From Candidatus Nanopelagicales bacterium (lineage in GTDB: Bacteria > Actinomycetota > Actinomycetes > S36-B12 > UBA5976), in contig JAURFT010000003.1 in NCBI GenBank assembly GCA_030834185.1, positions 1,848-65,847 on the forward strand: a stretch of DNA of 64,000 nt, given 5' to 3'. Positions within the stretch are counted from its first letter, which is position 1. Each line of letters opens with the position of its first letter. Positions 39,965 through 52,899 of this stretch are shown here, piece by piece. The notes beneath the pieces are model-generated. The model was not told the origin of the DNA. It saw only the letters and a program-made list of their open reading frames with translations, and ran no database searches. The position numbers were made by a program, and so were the translations under genes.

Positions 39965-40365
39965 TGAAATCTGGTGGCATGCTTTATATGGCAGGAGCAC
40001 TTTTTTACTTCGCAGTTTCTGCAATTTATTTTGTTTGGACCGGTGAAGTTGTTGGCACAACTGGACTGTTGCTAACTGGCTTTCTAGCGCTGCTAACCGG
40101 CTTTTATGTGCTCTTTACAGTTCGTCGATTAGGTGAAGGTCCAGAAGATCTTGAAGATGCTGAGATCGCAGATGCTGATCCAGACTATGGTTTTTATTCA
40201 CCAAGCTCCTGGTGGCCGCTACCGGTGGCATTTAGCGCAGCGGTGATCTCAGTTGGGCTGATTTTTGCAGTCTGGCTAGTGCTGCTTGGTGTAATTACTT
40301 TGTTTATTAGCTTGGGCGGTTGGATGCTTGAGTACTACCGAGGCCCTAGGTTGCCTGAAGCTTAA
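39964..40365 (+). CDS. ctaF: Cytochrome c oxidase subunit IV (actinobacterial CtaF)
   Basis: 133 aa with 4 TM helices. Directly follows ctaD with a TGATG overlap. Confidence 0.8.
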   Translation: MKSGGMLYMAGALFYFAVSAIYFVWTGEVVGTTGLLLTGFLALLTGFYVLFTVRRLGEGPEDLEDAEIADADPDYGFYSPSSWWPLPVAFSAAVISVGLIFAVWLVLLGVITLFISLGGWMLEYYRGPRLPEA

Positions 40366-40993
40366 TAGTTGTAACCGCATTAGCAGAGATTTGTTGTGCC
40401 AGCCTGGCATTTAAGCTGGCAGCAGCTGCAGCGCCGATAAATAATGGCAAAGCTGCGCCAGCTTTTGCCGGCAGCAATTTACTTCCCACCTTAATAATTA
40501 CTCGCTGGGATAGTTTGTTGTTCAAATTCGCAAGAAAGTTATCCGCTACATCAGTTGTTTTGCTCAACTCATTTGGTTCGCCAAGAAATGAACTAAGCAC
40601 AGTAAGGCGTCTGAGTTCAATATCGTCTAACTGCAGGTCATGTAAGGCGGCAATTAATAAAATGTGATTAACGCTCACTTTGCCAAAAAAATATAGATCA
40701 GCGGCAGTGCTTCCTATAGTGCTTAAAAAACCAAAAAAGGGTGCAGCAGCTATCGCACCAGATGCTGCACCAGCTGCGCTAACTTGAATCAGGTAATTAT
40801 TTGTGGCGTTCTTAATAAGTTGGTCTTGGGTGAAGTTTGGATTTTCGCTGCGCAAGCGTGCTGCAGCTGCCCAGGACTTTGCATATTGATCAGCTATAGC
40901 AGCATCTCCACCTCGAAGGAAAACACTGCCTAGCTGTTTGACTGCATCAGATTTTGAGTTCACCTCAGAAGGGTAGATCATCACCTGTATCAA
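40346..40993 (-). CDS. Hypothetical protein, possibly EcsC-like; third gene of the nuclease operon
   Basis: 215 aa with two Gly/Ala-rich hydrophobic stretches (AAGAASGAIAAAPFFGFLSTIGSTAADLYFFG; AGAALPLFIGAAAAAS). The block IAALHDLQLDDIELRR recalls EcsC-family proteins. The start (TTG 40993 or ATG 40981) overlaps the end of the upstream gene. The 3' end overlaps ctaF by 20 nt. Confidence 0.4.
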   Translation of the reverse strand: MIQVMIYPSEVNSKSDAVKQLGSVFLRGGDAAIADQYAKSWAAAARLRSENPNFTQDQLIKNATNNYLIQVSAAGAASGAIAAAPFFGFLSTIGSTAADLYFFGKVSVNHILLIAALHDLQLDDIELRRLTVLSSFLGEPNELSKTTDVADNFLANLNNKLSQRVIIKVGSKLLPAKAGAALPLFIGAAAAASLNARLAQQISANAVTTIKLQAT

Positions 40994-42722
40994 CCGCTTC
41001 CACCAAGGCTAGGGCTCGGACTAACGCATCTATGGCAACAGGCTGCGTAGTTATGACCTCACCGGTAACCAGATCTACCTCAAGGCCGTCAGCTAGTTTC
41101 TCTGTAGTAGTTTGCGGATTAGTTACCCGCTGATCGCACCAAGCGCTAACCGGGCAGCTCAAGCAAGCTGTTCCCGGATTGGGTGCAAAGCTCTCATCAT
41201 GATGTAGCTGATCGAAATTTATGGCAATTGAACGGCGAGCAGCAAGCACGATGCTTGCATCTGCAACATCAAATGAAATTAGCTTTCCTGATTCAGGGGT
41301 TAATAGCTCCAATTCGACAAATCCGCCGACCTCTTCTTGTATGCAAATTGCAAATGCAACCTGCGGATACAACAATAAATATTCATTAGCCGTTAGTTCT
41401 TGAATAACGGCTGTAGTTTTTAATTCACGCCAAATTGGCACACCAGCTCGAGTGCCAAGCTCATCAGCTCGAGTTGTGATTACCACATCAGCATCGCTAT
41501 CCCAAACCGTCTTAGATTGCTCGCTTTCTAGTTTGGTATAACTGTGTTGATATGGGCAGAGCGCAAAATGACTAGTTATCCAGTTGCGAGCTTGATCTAG
41601 ATAGGTTATTGGCCAACCCAGACTTTCTGCTATTTCACCCAGCTGTCCAGCTGGCAGGTCAGCGGCGGTGCAGGCTTGTTCGCGTTGGTGCGCTTTCATG
41701 ATCCATTCATGAACCGCGTTACCTCGATCGATGGCCGCATTTGATTCGAAAGCTTTTTTAGGAAGTTTCAAGACATATGTTAAGAAATACTGATAGTTAC
41801 ACCTTTGATACGAACTTAGCATCGAGCGCGAGAGGGATTTAGAGATTTTACCTGCGGTTGGAAGTCCTAGGAATCCTGGAATTTTTACAATTGCAGGGCA
41901 ACTAATTCGAAACCGACACTCAACGCAGTTATTGCCTGGCTGAAATTCAGGAGCCAACAAAAAATCTTGAACAATGGTTGAAACTCCGCCAACAAATGCC
42001 GCCGCAGATGACGCATCCCCATCAAAAAGCGTGGCAGCTGAACTATCCAAGCAACCAATTTGGCGCACTCTAACTCTGAGCGGGGGATTAGTTGGCAGCG
42101 TCTGGTGTGGGTCGGTCCAGCGGGCAATCGGCCCATCGGTGATGGCCCCATTTAATAAAATATTTACAGCCGCTATCAATTGGTTTCTATCTCGAGTAGT
42201 TTGGGCATCTCGATAGCAGAATAATCTAAGTTCTCTAATGGTTTTATCTACGCTTTGATAAAAAACACCCCAGTTGGTGAGCTCTAATCGCTGATTATCA
42301 GTAGTTGCGACACAAACAAAATCTGCAGTTGGCTGCATCACTTGGTCAACAGCTAAATCTTCAGCAGCAAAATCTTCAGTGGCATTTAGGGCATTTTGCA
42401 CCATTGTTTTTGCAGCTAATAAACTCGGTTCAGTCGCATCAGTACCAAGCTCTGCCGCAATTACTTCAGCTAGATTCGTCGGTGTTCGCTGTGCTGCTAA
42501 CACAGTGCGCGCTGCACCTAATAAAAATACTGCTCGGGGATCTTTGCGCTGGGACCAATCGCGGGCCTCGGTGTAAAGTCCAACATAGGCTTTAGCAACT
42601 TTTTCGACAGCGCAGCTTCCAGTTACATTTTTAAGGGCAGATGAACTAACTCGGATTAATGATGCCGATCCATTAGTTTTCCATGGTGGTTGCCACAGTT
42701 GTAGATCAGCTAGATTAATCAT
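40965..42722 (-). CDS. Tandem two-module PD-(D/E)XK (Cas4/AddB-type, 4-Cys) nuclease-like protein with an SSB-tail-like C-terminus
   Basis: Module 2: C308, GNAVH338, D420, E433-L-K435, C520-x2-C523-x5-C529. Module 1: C37 and C266-x2-C269-x5-C275, but D134...E147-L-T149 (no Lys). Ends ...DTGDDLPF. Confidence 0.6.
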   Translation of the reverse strand: MINLADLQLWQPPWKTNGSASLIRVSSSALKNVTGSCAVEKVAKAYVGLYTEARDWSQRKDPRAVFLLGAARTVLAAQRTPTNLAEVIAAELGTDATEPSLLAAKTMVQNALNATEDFAAEDLAVDQVMQPTADFVCVATTDNQRLELTNWGVFYQSVDKTIRELRLFCYRDAQTTRDRNQLIAAVNILLNGAITDGPIARWTDPHQTLPTNPPLRVRVRQIGCLDSSAATLFDGDASSAAAFVGGVSTIVQDFLLAPEFQPGNNCVECRFRISCPAIVKIPGFLGLPTAGKISKSLSRSMLSSYQRCNYQYFLTYVLKLPKKAFESNAAIDRGNAVHEWIMKAHQREQACTAADLPAGQLGEIAESLGWPITYLDQARNWITSHFALCPYQHSYTKLESEQSKTVWDSDADVVITTRADELGTRAGVPIWRELKTTAVIQELTANEYLLLYPQVAFAICIQEEVGGFVELELLTPESGKLISFDVADASIVLAARRSIAINFDQLHHDESFAPNPGTACLSCPVSAWCDQRVTNPQTTTEKLADGLEVDLVTGEVITTQPVAIDALVRALALVEAVDTGDDLPF

Positions 42723-43663
42723 TATTCACTCAATTCAAGCGGGAGTAAATCTAGCGGGTTTGGTTCAGCTGCTACGGCGGAAATTTTGCGCTGCAAACCA
42801 GTTTGGCTTAACAGCTGCTGCGATGCGGCTGAACCAGGTGGTGGTGAAGTTTTTTGGTGGGCGGGGCATACTGGTTTAAACGGGCAGTAACTGCACAGCC
42901 GAGATGGTTGCGCTAGCCATTTGGCGGTTTTAAATGACTCATCAATCTGAGAGCGAGTTTCCACAAGCACCTCAGTTACCCGCTCTATTGCCGCTGGATA
43001 CACAGGTCTGCGGACAGCTTGTTTATCCGGAAGAAAAAGCAGCTCAACTTCTTCAACGCCTGGATCTGAACCATCATTTATCGCTGCTGCATAAAACATT
43101 ACCTGCTGCACATAATCATCCAGCGGAGCTCCCGTGGGCTTTTTCCCAGTCTTGTAGTCGGTAACTCGGTCAACTGGTTTTCTAGTTCTACGATCTAACC
43201 TGCCATGAAATAAAACGCCAGCAAGCTGGGCATCTACATCAGATTCGATATCTTTTAAATCAACCTCAATCTCAGTTGGTTTCTCAAGCTCAAAATATCC
43301 CGTGAGTGCTAAATCAGCTCGTTTGCGAACATCGTCACGATTTGCACCACGGCCTAGATGTTCATACTCAGGCTTCAGTAACAAATCTTTACCAATGGTG
43401 CCCATGATCGCCCAAGCGTTCTCAAAGCTTCGATCAGGCTGTGGTAATCGATACAAGCCTTCTAAAGTGTCATGCACAATTGTTCCAGCCGCTAAAGCTG
43501 GGGTTGGTGGTTCGCGCCAACCCAGTAAATATGAAAACCAATATCGCAGCGCACATTTCCGAAAGGCTGAAATCTGGGTTGGCGATAATCTGATACTGGG
43601 ATTGCCAGCATCAGTTAAATCAACATCTACTTCAATAGATTGAAATCCGTTCCTTGCGCTCAT
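42722..43663 (-). CDS. Cas4/AddB-type PD-(D/E)XK nuclease with a 4-Cys (Fe-S) signature
   Basis: C37, G60-x3-H64, GRLD157, D169-Y-K171, Q187-x3-Y191 and C257-x2-C260-x5-C266. TAATG overlap with the downstream gene. Confidence 0.75.
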   Translation of the reverse strand: MSARNGFQSIEVDVDLTDAGNPSIRLSPTQISAFRKCALRYWFSYLLGWREPPTPALAAGTIVHDTLEGLYRLPQPDRSFENAWAIMGTIGKDLLLKPEYEHLGRGANRDDVRKRADLALTGYFELEKPTEIEVDLKDIESDVDAQLAGVLFHGRLDRRTRKPVDRVTDYKTGKKPTGAPLDDYVQQVMFYAAAINDGSDPGVEEVELLFLPDKQAVRRPVYPAAIERVTEVLVETRSQIDESFKTAKWLAQPSRLCSYCPFKPVCPAHQKTSPPPGSAASQQLLSQTGLQRKISAVAAEPNPLDLLPLELSE

Positions 43664-43686
43664 CTAGGCTCACTTAATTATTAGTT

Positions 43687-43714
43687 ACCCTACGGTACGC
43701 GCAGCCAGTGACAA
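43687..43714 (-). promoter_or_regulatory. Candidate sigma-A promoter of the nuclease operon
   Basis: The minus strand reads TTGTCA, a 16-nt spacer, then TAGGGT (TANNNT-type -10), 24 nt upstream of ATG 43663. This is a pattern match only. Confidence 0.3.
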
Positions 43715-43747
43715 TTACCAGTAAATCAACCTATTTTTTCCACCTAT

Positions 43748-44134
43748 TTAGGAATTTGCGCCGCTTAAGGTAAGGGCAAGCTGATCCCAGCGGGCCATTT
43801 CACAGCCATCAGTTCGAGTAAATTTGCGTTTGATCGGCGCACCAGCCCAGCGCCCAGTAACAATTGCCGTTTGTTCGCCGCCGTAAATTTTGGTGCAGAT
43901 CTCAGATTTTGGTGGCTTCTTAAATGGCAGCACTGCCGCTTTAAGTTCAGTGCATGCCAGTTTCGCCGCTGGATGGTTGCCAGCAGCAGGTCGACATTGC
44001 AATCTCCAATGCACAGCTTTTGCATCTGCAGCTGATTTATAGCTAATTTTTAGCTGGTAGTTCTGATTTGCAAAACTAGGGGAGAAGCTCAAATTAAAAC
44101 AACAAACTAAAACAACAATAACTAATTTTCGCAT
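43748..44134 (-). CDS. Secreted subtilisin-inhibitor-like (SSI-domain) protein
   Basis: A signal peptide followed by the SSI pattern LQCRPAAGNHPAAKLAC...CTKIYGGEQTAIVTGRWAGAPIKRKFTRTDGCEMARW, with two Cys pairs. Confidence 0.7.
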   Translation of the reverse strand: MRKLVIVVLVCCFNLSFSPSFANQNYQLKISYKSAADAKAVHWRLQCRPAAGNHPAAKLACTELKAAVLPFKKPPKSEICTKIYGGEQTAIVTGRWAGAPIKRKFTRTDGCEMARWDQLALTLSGANS

Positions 44135-45450
44135 CAGATCCTCGCTGGTTGATCATTGCCAGCTTCTGCAATGGCTTGTCGAATATTCACTCTAGCTAAA
44201 AGCAGTCCACCTGCAATAAAGAATACAATCAACGCCAAAATTGAAGTTCGGTAACTTCCAGTTAAAGTTAAGCTTAAACCAAATAAGAATGTACCTATCC
44301 AAGATGTGCCGCGCTCTGCAATCTCGTAAACCGCAAAATACTGAGCTTCCTGAGTTTTTGGAATCATCTGACTAAACAGTGATCGTGATAAAGCTTGTGA
44401 GCCTCCAAGCACTAAACCAATTAAGGCTGCAAGTAGGTAGTAAAAAATAGCTTCTTCTTTGGGTATGAAATAAGCCATAATCACCGCAAAAGTCCAAACC
44501 ACTAACGAAACTAACAAAACTTTTCGGCTACCAAATATTGCAGCAGCTTTACCTAGCGAGAGCGCACCAGCAAGCGCTACAAACTGCACAATCAAGATGG
44601 CTAAAATTAAATCAGATTGTGGAAGTAAAAGCTCAATTGCAGCATAAGTGCCAGCTAGCGCGATTACAGTTTGAATGCCATCGTTATACAGCAAATAGGC
44701 GATTAAAAATTTTAGTGTTTGTGGATACTTTCGTGCATCTTTAGCAGTTGCAACCAGTTGGCCAATAGTGAGCTTGAGATTGCTCACCCCCATTTTTCCT
44801 TGGGATCGATTCAACCCAGTAAGTCCGCGTAGCGATACCAATGTGAAAAGCAACCACCAGGTACCAGCGCTAACAATTGAGATTCGTACCGCAAAAGATT
44901 CTGCGATACCAATTGATTCGGCTGTTAAAAATAGCGCAACGTTTGCCAGCAGCAAACTTCCGCCGCCAAGATATCCAAGCCCCCAGCCTTTAGACGAAAC
45001 AGCATCGCGCTGATCAGCTGTTGCGATATCTGGTAGGTAGGAGTTATAAACCACAATTGATGAGCCAAATGCCACATTTGCAATCACTAAAAGTAATGAA
45101 CCAAATTGGTAGGTATCTGCAGTAACAAAATACATCAACATCGTTGCAACAGATCCCAGCAGCGCAAATGCGCCAAGCAGATTAGTTCTGCTTTTAACAT
45201 GATCAGCAAGCGCTCCTACTATGGGCAGCGTAATTACTTGCAACAGCACTGAAATTGAGATCGTGTAGGGAAATAAGCTCTCAGCTGCCATTGGAATACC
45301 CAGCACCGAGATAAACCCATTGCTGTTGGCCTGGTCCTGCGCTAATCCAGTTAGGTATGGCCCAAGAAAAACCGAGATAACAGTGGTTGAGAAGGCGGAA
45401 TTGGCAAAGTCATACATATACCAAGAGCGCTGAATGCGGTTTGATCTCAT
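44134..45450 (-). CDS. MFS transporter (UMF1/Atg22-like)
   Basis: 438 aa, 12 TM segments, N-terminal SWYMYDFANSAF motif. Confidence 0.8.
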   Translation of the reverse strand: MRSNRIQRSWYMYDFANSAFSTTVISVFLGPYLTGLAQDQANSNGFISVLGIPMAAESLFPYTISISVLLQVITLPIVGALADHVKSRTNLLGAFALLGSVATMLMYFVTADTYQFGSLLLVIANVAFGSSIVVYNSYLPDIATADQRDAVSSKGWGLGYLGGGSLLLANVALFLTAESIGIAESFAVRISIVSAGTWWLLFTLVSLRGLTGLNRSQGKMGVSNLKLTIGQLVATAKDARKYPQTLKFLIAYLLYNDGIQTVIALAGTYAAIELLLPQSDLILAILIVQFVALAGALSLGKAAAIFGSRKVLLVSLVVWTFAVIMAYFIPKEEAIFYYLLAALIGLVLGGSQALSRSLFSQMIPKTQEAQYFAVYEIAERGTSWIGTFLFGLSLTLTGSYRTSILALIVFFIAGGLLLARVNIRQAIAEAGNDQPARI

Positions 45451-50229: not shown

Positions 50230-51285
50230 ATGCTTTTTCCTGAAATTTCAAAGCTAGTTGCTAATCGCATTGACCTTGACTTTCAAACCAGTAAATCCCT
50301 AATGGGTTTAATTATGGATAATCAACTCAGCGATGAGCAGATTAAAGAAATAATTTTAGGGTTAAAAACTAAAGGTGAAGCGGCAGCTGAGGTCACAGGT
50401 TTTGTGGCAGCAATGTTGGAACGCAGTTCGCTAATTGAGGTACCAGAAGTTTGTTTGGACATTGTTGGCACAGGTGGAGATCAATCGGGCTCAGTGAACA
50501 TCTCGACAACTGCTGCCTTAGTTGCAGCAGCAACTGGGATAAAAGTTATAAAGCATGGCAATCGAGCCGCAAGCAGCAAATCTGGTTCAGCAGATGTGCT
50601 CGAAGCTCTTGGAATTTATCTGAATATGAATGATATTCAGATAAAAGAATGTGCAGATGAAGTTGGTATTGCATTTTGTTTTGCGCCTCAATTTCATCCA
50701 GCTATGAAAAATGTTGCTGCAGTTCGAAAAGAAATTGGGCTACCAACAATTTTCAATATCTTAGGTCCGCTGGCAAACCCAGCCCAGCCGACCTCGATGG
50801 TAGTTGGCGTGGCTGATGCAGCTCGTGCCGAGTTAATGGCGAAAGTGCTAAGTGAACGAGGCTGTGTTGGGTTTATGGTTCATGGCGATGATGGATTAGA
50901 TGAAATTACAATCACTACAACTTCAACTATCTGGCAGTTTGGAAAAAATATATTTGAGAAACAAGTTTTTGTTCCAACTGAATTTGATATACCTTTTGCA
51001 AAAAGCGAATTACTTAACGGTGGCGATGCTCTGGAAAATGCCGAAAAACTCATTGCTGCTTTAGACCCCACCCAACTAAATCCCACAGTTGTGGCAATTC
51101 GAAATGCTGTGATTTTAAACGCAGCTGCTGGCATTTTGGCACACCAAATTAAAGTTTTGGCAGCTTCACGATTAGTTACCAATGCCCAATGGCAAGAGGC
51201 AATTACAGCGGCTGCAGCTGTCATCAATAGCGGTGCTGCTTTAGAAAAATTAAGGAATTGGCAGAAATTCTGCGCTGTCAGCTAG
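50230..51285 (+). CDS. trpD: Anthranilate phosphoribosyltransferase
   Basis: Motifs DIVGTGGD, KHGNRA(A)SS and SGSADVLEALG. Confidence 0.93.
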   Translation: MLFPEISKLVANRIDLDFQTSKSLMGLIMDNQLSDEQIKEIILGLKTKGEAAAEVTGFVAAMLERSSLIEVPEVCLDIVGTGGDQSGSVNISTTAALVAAATGIKVIKHGNRAASSKSGSADVLEALGIYLNMNDIQIKECADEVGIAFCFAPQFHPAMKNVAAVRKEIGLPTIFNILGPLANPAQPTSMVVGVADAARAELMAKVLSERGCVGFMVHGDDGLDEITITTTSTIWQFGKNIFEKQVFVPTEFDIPFAKSELLNGGDALENAEKLIAALDPTQLNPTVVAIRNAVILNAAAGILAHQIKVLAASRLVTNAQWQEAITAAAAVINSGAALEKLRNWQKFCAVS

Positions 51286-52899
51286 CGCTGCTGCTAAATC
51301 TGGCAAGCTCATTAACAGTTCAGCTTCACCAATTGCCGCTGGCGCATCATCAAAGTTCGCCAGTGATTTAGCTGGAAGAATTCCGCGTGCTTCAACCAGC
51401 TCTGCAGTCGTCAGCATTGCATTAATTACCTCAGGTAGCCTGCTATCATCTGCTGCAGCTGCAGTGGCAACAAGGCGTCCGTATTTAATGACATGAATCT
51501 CAACTCCAGTTTGAGTTTTGTTCTGAGAGACAAATAGATCTAGCTTCACTATTTTACGTAGCTTTGAAATTCTATTTGCAGCCCGATCAAGACCAATCCA
51601 GGCCCGTTTAAGTTTTTCAGCATCTTCAAATCTTTCACTTGCCGATAGTTGTTGCAGCTTCTCCCTTATGGCTTGATCGATATTTGCTGTATTTCCATTC
51701 ATAACTAATTCAACTTCTTTGACTAAACCTAAATAGTCATTTAGATCAGCTGATTGGCATGGCATCACACAATGATTCATCTCACCTCGAATGCAACCAG
51801 GATGATTTGGCCTGGTGTTTAACTTGTCGATGCAAGTGCGTAATTGAAAATGATTATTTATAAAATCTTGCAACTCGCTGGCAATTGCCTTTTTATTAAA
51901 TGGGCCTAGCGCTGGCTGTTCTAACTCTGGTGGATTTTTTGAAACTATTAATCTTGGAACTACATCATTGGTGAAATATATCCACCAAATTTTCTCAGGG
52001 TTTCGAGCAACTTTGTTTGCAGGCGGTCGATGCTGTGCGATGAGCCGCAGTTCACGTACCCGAGCTTCGGTAGCAGTTGTACAAATCACAGTAGAAACAG
52101 ATGTAGTAATTGCTACTACATTTCGAACATGATTGCGCTGTTCGCTTTTAGTAAAGTAACTTCTTACTCGTTTTTTTAAATCCTGACTCACTCCGACATA
52201 TAAAACTGTCCCTTGCGCATCCTTAAGCAAATAGCATCCTGGAAGATTAGGGAGTTGATCGGCAAGTTTTGATTTCGCGCGCACCTGTTCAGAAATTTTT
52301 GGCGAAACTTCTTGAAGCTCATCTAAGTCATGCACACCAAGTCTGCCCAGGCGTTCAAGCAGGGCATGAAATACCTCAACTGTTGCCCGAGCATCAGCGA
52401 GAGCCCGGTGATTTGGTTGCACTGTGGTGCCAAATTGCTGAGCTAGCGTGGCCAATTTGCGATTTCTTACTTCATCGCGGCCCAGTGCTACTTTTGCCAG
52501 CTGCACTGTGTCTAAGGCTTTTGGTAGATCCCAAGAGTAGCCATGGCGAATCGCAGCGCATCTGAGAAATCCAATATCAAATCGAGCGTTATGTGCAACG
52601 GGTATTGCACCAGCCATGAACTCAAAAAAACTAGGTAGCACCTGGTCTATCCGGGGAGCTGTTGTAGTCATGCTGGTTGATATCCCAGTTAGGATCTCAA
52701 TATTTATTGGAATTGCAACACCTGGATTCACCAAGGTTTGAAACTCACCTAATATTTCGCCACCTTTGACTTTAACAATGCCAATTTCAGTGATTGCATT
52801 CAAATCTGGGCTGCCACCTGTTGTTTCAATATCCAAAATAGCAAAAGTCACTTCATGCAGCGGCATGGCGAGCTCATCGAATGAAATTTGTTGTTGCAC
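51250..52899 (-). CDS. DEDD (DnaQ-like) exonuclease fused to a GIY-YIG (UvrC/Cho-like) nuclease domain
   Basis: Exo I motif ILDIETTG and HNARFD, then HRALADA. The GIY-YIG region is GCYLLKD...VLYVGVS. Rv2191-like position beside trpD. Confidence 0.8.
   Translation of the reverse strand: MQQQISFDELAMPLHEVTFAILDIETTGGSPDLNAITEIGIVKVKGGEILGEFQTLVNPGVAIPINIEILTGISTSMTTTAPRIDQVLPSFFEFMAGAIPVAHNARFDIGFLRCAAIRHGYSWDLPKALDTVQLAKVALGRDEVRNRKLATLAQQFGTTVQPNHRALADARATVEVFHALLERLGRLGVHDLDELQEVSPKISEQVRAKSKLADQLPNLPGCYLLKDAQGTVLYVGVSQDLKKRVRSYFTKSEQRNHVRNVVAITTSVSTVICTTATEARVRELRLIAQHRPPANKVARNPEKIWWIYFTNDVVPRLIVSKNPPELEQPALGPFNKKAIASELQDFINNHFQLRTCIDKLNTRPNHPGCIRGEMNHCVMPCQSADLNDYLGLVKEVELVMNGNTANIDQAIREKLQQLSASERFEDAEKLKRAWIGLDRAANRISKLRKIVKLDLFVSQNKTQTGVEIHVIKYGRLVATAAAADDSRLPEVINAMLTTAELVEARGILPAKSLANFDDAPAAIGEAELLMSLPDLAAALADSAEFLPIP

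Follow-up and report, generated by a model that had tools for sequence, protein, structure and literature searches.

The window analysed here, a stretch of 64,000 nucleotides from a Candidatus Nanopelagicales bacterium (contig JAURFT010000003.1, positions 1,848 to 65,847 of the forward strand), contains three minus-strand open reading frames, ORF A, ORF B and ORF C, which are chained by overlaps and sit between the respiratory genes ctaCDF and qcrCAB. A preliminary description of this DNA presented the three as one operon of iron-sulfur (Fe-S) nucleases with an EcsC-like protein. The frames are present where they were first read; the conserved unit, though, is the pair formed by ORF A and ORF B and not the trio, because the pair recurs elsewhere without ORF C. 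Judged from their sequences, A and B are members of the Cas4/PDDEXK_1 iron-staple class and together hold two intact Cas4-type active sites, one in A and one in the C-terminal domain of B, and three iron-staple modules, nuclease activity and cluster being predicted. The pair does not amount to a new system class, but to a clean, rare and conserved two-gene module, ordinary in fold and chemistry, whose novelty lies in the combination of a motor-less dual nuclease with a mimic of the tail of SSB, the protein that binds single-stranded DNA, and in its genomic behaviour. The role favoured here, tentatively, is that of a dual Fe-S nuclease that lacks a motor, docks on the client proteins of SSB, likely attacks foreign DNA ends and has become fixed in this lineage. 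The parts of the pair are as follows:

42722..43663, minus strand: ORF A, 313 residues, a single-domain predicted Cas4-family Fe-S PD-(D/E)XK nuclease
40965..42722, minus strand: ORF B, 585 residues, a two-staple PD-(D/E)XK protein
41847..42722, minus strand: N-terminal half of ORF B, residues 1-292, with its own Cys staple (C37 + C266/C269/C275)
41118..41846, minus strand: C-terminal nuclease domain of ORF B, residues 293-535, with the second staple (C308 + C520/C523/C529)
40986..41117, minus strand: C-terminal extension of ORF B, residues 536-579, with a 'DGxxVDxxTGE' element and a short helix
40968..40985, minus strand: tail of ORF B resembling the SSB C-terminus (SSB-Ct), G-D-D-L-P-F followed by the stop
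42720..42724, minus strand: A/B junction TAATG, where the stop of A overlaps the start of B, as read from the sequence, with predicted translational coupling

A recurrent pair of Cas4-type nuclease genes

The arrangement of A followed by B was found in eight actinobacterial lineages, with proteins about 30-45% identical to those of the window. These lineages are the clade of the window itself (L001-L005 in our numbering), L009, L010-12, L013/14, L015/16, L017/18, L025 and L026. The two genes overlap by 1-8 nt in seven of the eight, and are separated by 5 nt in L025. When divergent B homologs (31-35% identity) are taken as the starting point, a gene for an A ortholog (E = 1e-48 to 1e-75) lies immediately upstream in L009, L010-12, L013/14, L015/16 and L017/18. 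When distant A homologs are taken instead, three of the four examined are followed by B (L009; L025, with a partial B; and L026), and the remaining one stands alone beside nuo. Of the three genes that had been grouped together, A and B therefore do co-occur in other genomes, whereas C does not: tblastn and phmmer detected no counterpart of ORF C at any A-B locus outside the clade of the window.

The neighbourhoods of the A-B loci are unrelated to one another. The context is one of miscellaneous metabolism in L011, includes a GmrSD_C gene in L013 and consists of regulators in L025 and L026, and the genes found downstream of other pairs encode a glycosyltransferase, an aldehyde dehydrogenase, ThsA and other proteins. 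In L015 and L017 the pair is placed within the dcw cluster, with ftsZ on one side and ftsQ on the other. In L009 (305-8035) it has on one side a ubiquitin-like conjugation system of the Bil type (BilD, E = 9e-13; BilC, E = 3e-12; with Y4jH-like and DUF2604 genes alongside) and on the other the beginning of a gene for ThsA of Thoeris (SIR2/STALD, E = 5e-22), and this 8-kb contig reads as a compact defence island. Overall, the A-B pair has the appearance of a rare, mobile and horizontally scattered actinobacterial module. The insertion in the dcw cluster is a block of about 7 kb (L015 6251-13369, L017 6229-13414) comprising pntAA-pntAB-pntB, A, B and an aldehyde dehydrogenase gene in reversed orientation; these two loci represent another freshwater actinobacterial lineage, where the B cluster has 799 member sequences and the population is abundant.

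ORF A matches the Pfam family PDDEXK_1 (PF12705) over residues 25-267 with E = 4.8e-30 (105.7 bits, cut-off 22). The complete Cas4/AddB-type signature that had been attributed to it is correct at each named position and conserved in orthologs: the motifs are C37, G60xxxH64, GRLD157, D169-Y-K171, Q187xxxY191 and C257-x2-C260-x5-C266, and among 12 orthologs, down to 33% identity, C37, H64, D157, D169-x-K171, Y191, C257, C260 and C266 are invariant and Q187 nearly so. ORF A thus has both the catalytic D...(D/E)xK motif and the 1+3 Cys arrangement (CxxCx5C) of the Cas4/PDDEXK_1 class. Among solved structures, those closest to it in sequence are the AdnAB nuclease domains from mycobacteria (6ppu, 7sjr), and comparison with phage protein families returned generic PHROG 'exonuclease' matches and nothing more specific. 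Past the last Cys (window 42722-42895, residues ~257-313) the family keeps the pattern 'AP-x-PGS-xx-S-xxx-L-xxx-GL', in which P276, G277, S281, L285 and L290 are invariant, stand-alone A-type proteins included. Several pair-type A proteins terminate in a short acidic/hydrophobic motif (LLPLELSE, LPFE), and the C-terminal motif of ORF A may be another interaction peptide. A stand-alone A-type nuclease gene (L021 245-1111, 39% identity) is located upstream of a gene for a menaquinone-type methyltransferase and of the nuo operon, with no B gene present; because of this gene the A family is broader than the A-B pair, and it may include housekeeping members.

ORF B matches PDDEXK_1 over residues 296-530 (E = 5.8e-17, 62.9 bits, cut-off 22). 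The repetition of the C...CxxCx5C staple, which had been noticed from the letters, is borne out by an alignment of 121 near-full-length family representatives and the query, where both sets (C37 with C266/C269/C275, and C308 with C520/C523/C529) are essentially invariant, as are D408, D420, E433, K435, H345, C351 and C389. The C-terminal domain aligns with the ORF A family over 233 columns (hhalign, 98% probability, E = 4.5e-14), and in this alignment D420, E433-x-K435, Q454 and the Cys set of B are in register with D157, D169-x-K171, Q187 and C37/257/260/266 of A. At least 117 of 122 sequences keep the catalytic residues (D420, E433-L-K435) and the Cys residues, and 92 of 122 keep Q454, so that the domain is predicted to be an intact, A-like Cas4-family nuclease domain. 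The N-terminal half differs: its hhalign matches are weak and confined to the two ends that carry Cys residues (with the N-terminus of A, E = 3e-4; with the end of the C-domain of B, E = 9e-5), and E164-x-R/W/H166 stands in place of the usual ExK of the fold, so the catalytic motif is lacking. This half is probably a degenerate and non-catalytic Cas4-like duplicate that has kept its iron staple. Four residues of the active domain, H345, C351, H385 and C389 (window 41556-41690, residues 345-389), are invariant across the B family and may bind a third metal or form a disulfide. A comparison of B C-termini across six A-B lineages indicates that the 'DGxxVDxxTGE' element and the short helix of the extension are specific to pair-type B.

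The B family was surveyed by an exhaustive search of representative sequences together with 12 targeted contig look-ups. It is small, with just 222 clusters at 50% identity (E <= 0.001) in an exhaustive HMMER pass over 1.84 billion representatives. The preliminary description could name no described system with this composition; ORF B matches the PADLOC model PDLC02423 PprPDDEXK over residues 143-534 (E = 6.8e-49), so the component is already catalogued and the composition is new. Searching solved structures by sequence with the B profile gave no match. The AlphaFold2 (AF2) model of ORF B, built from 8 sequences, is a low-confidence monomer (mean pLDDT 49), and Foldseek run with this model ranked RecE, the SSO0001 Cas4, ACE1, MGME1, AdnAB, AddAB and Dna2 as best matches. 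A phage or prophage origin is unsupported, with no tblastn matches in 50,697 phage records and no B or C relatives in IMG/VR.

The pair shares with AddAB and AdnAB the Cas4-type PD-(D/E)XK fold, the 1+3 Cys staple and, as predicted from sequence for A-B, two nuclease sites distributed over two subunits. It differs in that no SF1 motor domain is found in A, in B or nearby, PDDEXK_1 being the only domain found in the two proteins, and ATP-driven translocation and Chi-type regulation cannot apply to it as such. Scores against the NCBIfam AddB/RexB models are 12-20 bits, for cut-offs of 486-904, and the TIGR00372 cas4 equivalog gives 34.1 for a cut-off of 65; the earlier judgement that the genes do not fit AddAB, AdnAB, RecBCD or CRISPR adaptation is upheld by scores so far below the cut-offs. 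The likeness to Cas4, ACE1 and ACE2 consists of the D...DxK motif and the iron staple, defined as one N-terminal and three C-terminal Cys (PMC12094033), in small stand-alone enzymes acting on single-stranded DNA ends. Unlike these, A and B have no Cas1/Cas2 or prokaryotic Argonaute (pAgo) partner, and B is a tandem, two-staple protein of twice the size.

The SSB-like tail and the other contexts of ORF B

The tip of SSB is DDDIPF in Escherichia coli (PMC5872125) and GGGDDEPPF in mycobacteria (PMC7847540, PMC3575820). The B protein of the window terminates in ...TGDDLPF, its close homologs in DDLPF or DDVPF, and distant relatives in DEDIPF, DDDVPF, DDEPPF, DDDPPPF or DEEFPF. The window protein thus has the acidic residues and the hydrophobic-Pro-Phe sequence at the extreme C-terminus by which the SSB-Ct motif is defined, and the ends of pair-type B (DDLPF, DEDIPF, DDDVPF, DDEPPF) reproduce it after a linker, including the obligatory terminal Phe. 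ORF B has no SSB or OB-fold match in Pfam and is therefore not an SSB; it differs by lacking the OB fold, and the binding of clients by its tail is putative. A PF terminus is present in 48 of 121 full-length B representatives, 42 of these with at least two acidic residues among the last eight. As a control, such a tip was found in 18 of 2,707 ORFs of at least 150 residues in all the DNA examined, and all 18 are B proteins. On clustering of the B family the window protein falls in a cluster of 16, 15 of them tailed. A search of open-access papers and preprints found no SSB-tip mimic on a nuclease, no 'PprPDDEXK' paper and no Nanopelagicales A-B pair.

The tail is distributed according to context. 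Among complete pair-type B proteins the PF terminus is present in seven of seven, with the full acidic tip in six of the seven lineages, whereas none of three B proteins linked to pPIWI-RE, whose operons encode their own DinG-type helicase, carries the tip. Taken together, the tip occurs in 9 of 10 helicase-less contexts versus 0 of 3 helicase-encoding pPIWI-RE operons (Fisher p = 0.014, for a small sample of phylogenetically non-independent loci).

The pPIWI-RE context was met in P0012, where a homolog about 30% identical to B is encoded by the first gene of an operon with genes for pPIWI_RE_Y/REase, the pPIWI_RE_Z helicase and the pPIWI-RE protein; P0078 and the Streptomyces rimosus plasmid pSRIMHP have the same arrangement, and these operons adjoin McrBC/AIPR or TIR/AbiE genes. 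pPIWI-RE has been described as a three-gene operon of restriction endonuclease (REase), DinG-type helicase and pPIWI-RE protein, and a fourth gene is not mentioned (Burroughs et al. 2013, PMC3702460). The actinobacterial operons are four-gene units with the B-type gene first (L006 7881-16884, L020 7256-16512, L024 8692-17070), and in L006 and L020 a gene for a large N6-methyltransferase lies divergently upstream. B is homologous to PprPDDEXK and has the same two-staple, two-domain build and the same invariant catalytic residues. Neither the window nor any A-B locus, though, contains a pPIWI-RE, REase or DinG-type helicase gene; the partner of B is here the Cas4-like ORF A, and pair-type B has a C-terminal extension of 50-70 residues with the SSB-like tip, both of which the pPIWI-RE-linked proteins lack. 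A parallel is offered by ACE1, a Cas4-family nuclease that works with a PIWI-family protein in defence; genomes lacking pAgo also contain many ACE genes (PMC12094033), and ACE is found with or without pAgo as B is with or without pPIWI-RE.

In a third context B is accompanied by a homologous protein of about 270 residues, weakly PIN-like, and by a divergent ImmA/IrrE peptidase. Such cassettes were seen in L019 (1216-4975), L022 (8983-12685) and L023 (9091-12662); two of the three, L022 and L023, are on plasmids, of Streptomyces albidoflavus and Rhodococcus antarcticus, respectively. They adjoin DRT UG22 and MmeI-like genes, or an EcoRI-type methyltransferase gene and DUF262, in surroundings that resemble defence islands. 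The ~270-residue protein has a weak PIN_4 match and C-terminal CxxC pairs, and the cassette is possibly an undescribed candidate system.

Proposed mechanism and alternatives

In the mechanism proposed, A and B would be the two subunits of one motor-less Cas4/AddB-type iron-sulfur nuclease. ORF A would give one active PD-(D/E)XK site and the C-domain of B the second, the degenerate, Fe-S-stapled N-half of B being probably structural or DNA-binding. By analogy with the nuclease modules of AddAB/AdnAB and with Cas4/ACE1, the complex could cut or trim single-stranded DNA at DNA ends. The flexible extension of B ends in an acidic ...DDLPF tip that appears to copy that of SSB; this tip would bind a host protein that normally recognises the SSB tail and so replace a helicase of the system's own. 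The client might be a helicase or translocase, or another protein such as ClpX; the former is the most parsimonious choice because the tail anticorrelates with operon-encoded helicases. The likely role would be attack on foreign (phage or plasmid) DNA ends, and the balance leans to defence or conflict because of the other contexts of B, because the family is rare and patchy, and because of the island in L009. Within the Nanopelagicales-type clade, A-B would by now be a stably inherited resident of a variable slot between ctaF and qcrB.

Several observations weigh against this proposal. Six of the eight A-B loci lie outside recognisable defence islands, among housekeeping or metabolic genes, and in the clade of the window the trio has remained syntenic though B diverged to 60% identity; such stable synteny is unusual for defence genes and fits a maintenance function. 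Relatives of ORF B are missing from phage and viral contigs in the tblastn and IMG/VR searches mentioned above, and the AF2 runs on B and C yielded low-confidence monomers only. The correlation between tail and helicase concerns just 13 loci, which are not phylogenetically independent; the tail of L026 is weakly acidic, and the B protein of L022, which is helicase-less, has no tail. In mycobacteria, finally, RecO fails to bind the SSB tip (PMC3575820), and therefore the set of SSB-tip clients in actinobacteria is not simply that of E. coli.

The same observations bear on a housekeeping reading, which is possible and on balance somewhat unlikely: A-B could be a minimal nuclease of streamlined actinobacteria for break resection, recombination or gap repair, a stand-in for the nuclease halves of AdnAB/RecBCD, with the SSB-like tail linking it to the genome-maintenance network. 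Besides the synteny of the trio in five species-level genomes and the housekeeping surroundings of most pairs, it is favoured by the pair inside the dcw cluster of a very abundant population (the 799-member cluster), by AdnAB nuclease domains being the closest solved relatives of ORF A, by the A-type protein encoded alone next to nuo, and by the fact that enzymes of repair and replication typically interact with the SSB tip. The gene next to the pair in L013 also looks HhH-glycosylase-like, by eye only and with no Pfam or PADLOC match. Prolonged retention in synteny in two abundant freshwater lineages, and neighbourhoods that are mostly of a housekeeping kind, keep up the case for a maintenance role. 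A routine repair function, however, sits poorly with the rarity of the B family, with the absence of the pair from 33 of 33 other cta/qcr slots, with patterns for the clade being matched in only 5 of 185,579 species genomes, and with A, B and C diverging faster than the flanking respiratory genes; the other contexts of B are defence operons and plasmid islands, and one pair is lodged between Bil and ThsA. The tail might instead be regulatory and not a hook for a helicase, which is unlikely: it could be an autoinhibitory pseudo-substrate folding back on a DNA-binding groove in A or in B, a signal that controls nuclease levels by binding ClpX or in the manner of a degron, or a decoy sensing phage proteins that target the host SSB tail. 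The mycobacterial SSB tip DDEPPF does bind and activate ClpX (PMC7847540), the tail follows a long, poorly predicted linker, two of the three ImmA/IrrE-linked B proteins are tailed, and its presence in seven of seven complete pairs would equally fit a tail that binds A. Tailed B proteins without an A partner (L019, L023) argue, though, against A as the sole target, and the tail is missing exactly where the operon encodes a DinG-type helicase, as recruitment of a helicase predicts.

Two further explanations concern the composition of the unit. That A, B and C form one novel three-component system with the EcsC-like protein as an integral part is quite improbable. The start of C overlaps the end of B by 17 nt, and the order C-B-A is retained in all five related genomes, even where the SSI gene is swapped for an ABC transporter; against these stand the lack of any C homolog at A-B loci outside the clade, the confinement of C homologs to at least 53% identity, and an EcsC similarity that stays sub-threshold. 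The idea of a CRISPR remnant, with A and B as solo Cas4s or as what is left of a CRISPR adaptation module, or of an AddAB/AdnAB operon after loss of the helicase, could draw on the weak Cas4 and AddB profile matches. It is effectively refuted by sub-cut-off scores (cas4, 34 versus 65; AddB, 17-20 versus 486-904), by the lack of cas1, cas2 or an array within 10 kb, and by a pair whose genes are both intact and conserved; the same two-gene build in eight lineages is not decay.

The motor-less nuclease docking on SSB clients, if correct, would mean that a nuclease can acquire a motor, or control, in trans through imitation of the universal docking peptide of SSB, a principle that could extend to other helicase-less nuclease operons, and it would offer a function for the fourth gene of pPIWI-RE operons, which so far has no explanation. 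Actinomycetota, among them the extremely abundant freshwater acI/Nanopelagicales that are difficult to grow in culture, would also gain a module for defence or repair. The tiny genomes of acI/Nanopelagicales carry few recognised defence systems. A stronger form of the proposal is doubtful: A-B as an unrecognised actinobacterial anti-phage or anti-plasmid system that has no motor of its own and either uses the tail of B to borrow a host SSB-client helicase that moves the dual Fe-S nuclease along foreign DNA ends, or acts as a decoy triggered by phage proteins (recombinases, SSB-hijackers) that grab the SSB-like tail, domesticated in freshwater Nanopelagicales-type bacteria with a private EcsC-like partner as a permanent component of the chromosome. 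Should the pair prove to be a routine repair nuclease, it would still be a compact motor-less alternative to end processing of the AdnAB/RecBCD type. The finding yields a specific and cheaply testable hypothesis as to the way in which helicase-less nucleases might be coupled to the SSB interaction network.

ORF C and the ctaF-qcrB slot

The remaining features of the locus are the third gene and the spacer upstream of ORF A:

40346..40993 as an open frame, 40346..40981 from its ATG, minus strand: ORF C, 211 residues, Ala/Gly-rich, helical, lineage-specific
43664..43747, minus strand: spacer of 84 bp between the SSI-like gene and ORF A, holding the candidate promoter TTGTCA-16-TAGGGT

Direct reading of the A/B junction gives GAATAATGATT, in which the TAA stop of A shares bases with the ATG of B, and so confirms the TAATG first reported. 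The start of ORF C does lie inside the final codons of B, with an overlap of 17 nt from ATG 40981. This ATG is taken as the true start, and not TTG 40993 as had also been considered, because all 15 aligned C homologs begin MIY or MTY. Codons 1-6 of ORF C (MIYPSE) share nucleotides, in another frame, with the DDLPF tip and stop of B (window 40965-40981), and the strong conservation of the C N-terminus (MIYxSD/E) may partly reflect constraint on the tail of B. The trio forms the end of a co-directional array, ctaE-qcrCAB-MFS-SSI-A-B-C, and because of this position a separate promoter for it is unproven. The letters of the promoter that had been suggested are present in the spacer; a consensus scan does not flag the site, and promoter-like matches in the region are no commoner than in shuffled sequences. 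No minus-strand terminator was predicted in the 84-bp spacer.

ORF C of the window has no match to the Pfam family EcsC (PF12787). Its likeness to EcsC is weak: 6 of 16 C homologs give collinear partial matches to the profile, and C has a similar Gly/Ala-rich helical composition, but every score is under the gathering threshold (best E = 0.005, 16.9 bits, cut-off 30.4) and no EcsA/EcsB ABC-transporter genes lie alongside. To our knowledge the EcsC family has no established function. Homologs of C were found only at 53% identity or above, all in one clade. The AF2 model (16 sequences) has a mean pLDDT of 57, and Foldseek returned nothing for it at E < 0.4. ORF C was also considered as a membrane protein and rejected, since it has no convincing transmembrane segment (maximum 19-residue Kyte-Doolittle score 1.53). 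As a gene that overlaps B and would be co-transcribed with it, C could be a clade-specific add-on acting as regulator or anchor.

The flanks of about 10 kb are of a housekeeping kind: ctaC/D/F, qcrC/A/B, ctaE, trpD, sugar kinases, an Fe-S assembly protein and an Rv2191-like DnaQ + GIY-YIG protein. As the preliminary description had it, no helicase, ATPase, methylase, cas gene, recombinase or repeat array occurs within about 10 kb on either side. The order ctaF, C-B-A, (SSI), MFS, qcrB is kept in five related Nanopelagicales-type genomes at species level, across which A is 72-80%, B 60-72% and C 58-63% identical, for 79-95% in the respiratory genes. The expectation that other actinobacteria fill this slot differently also held: among 33 other actinobacterial contigs with both ctaF and qcrB, where the convergent junction spans just 0.03-3.4 kb, none holds an A, B, C, SSI or MFS homolog. 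A scan with patterns for the clade was matched by only 5 of 185,579 species genomes, all close relatives. Because the trio is syntenic in five genomes and missing from the 33 other junctions, the respiratory locus is a variable slot within a conserved frame, and the trio a lineage-specific cargo that has since been stably inherited.

Two more genes occupy the same slot and are co-directional with the trio. One encodes a secreted protein resembling subtilisin inhibitors (SSI; 43748-44134, minus strand; Pfam E = 8e-11) with a hydrophobic N-terminus, which is 54-57% identical in relatives; in L004 an amino-acid ABC transporter replaces it and the trio is retained. The other encodes an Atg22-like MFS transporter (44134-45450, minus strand; E = 6e-92). 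Further away, 7.5 kb from the trio and, though a conserved neighbour, with no sign of linkage to it, a fusion of RNase_T (DnaQ-like) and GIY-YIG domains (51250-52899, minus strand) adjoins trpD (50230-51285, plus strand), an arrangement which we take to be that of trpD-Rv2191 in Mycobacterium tuberculosis.

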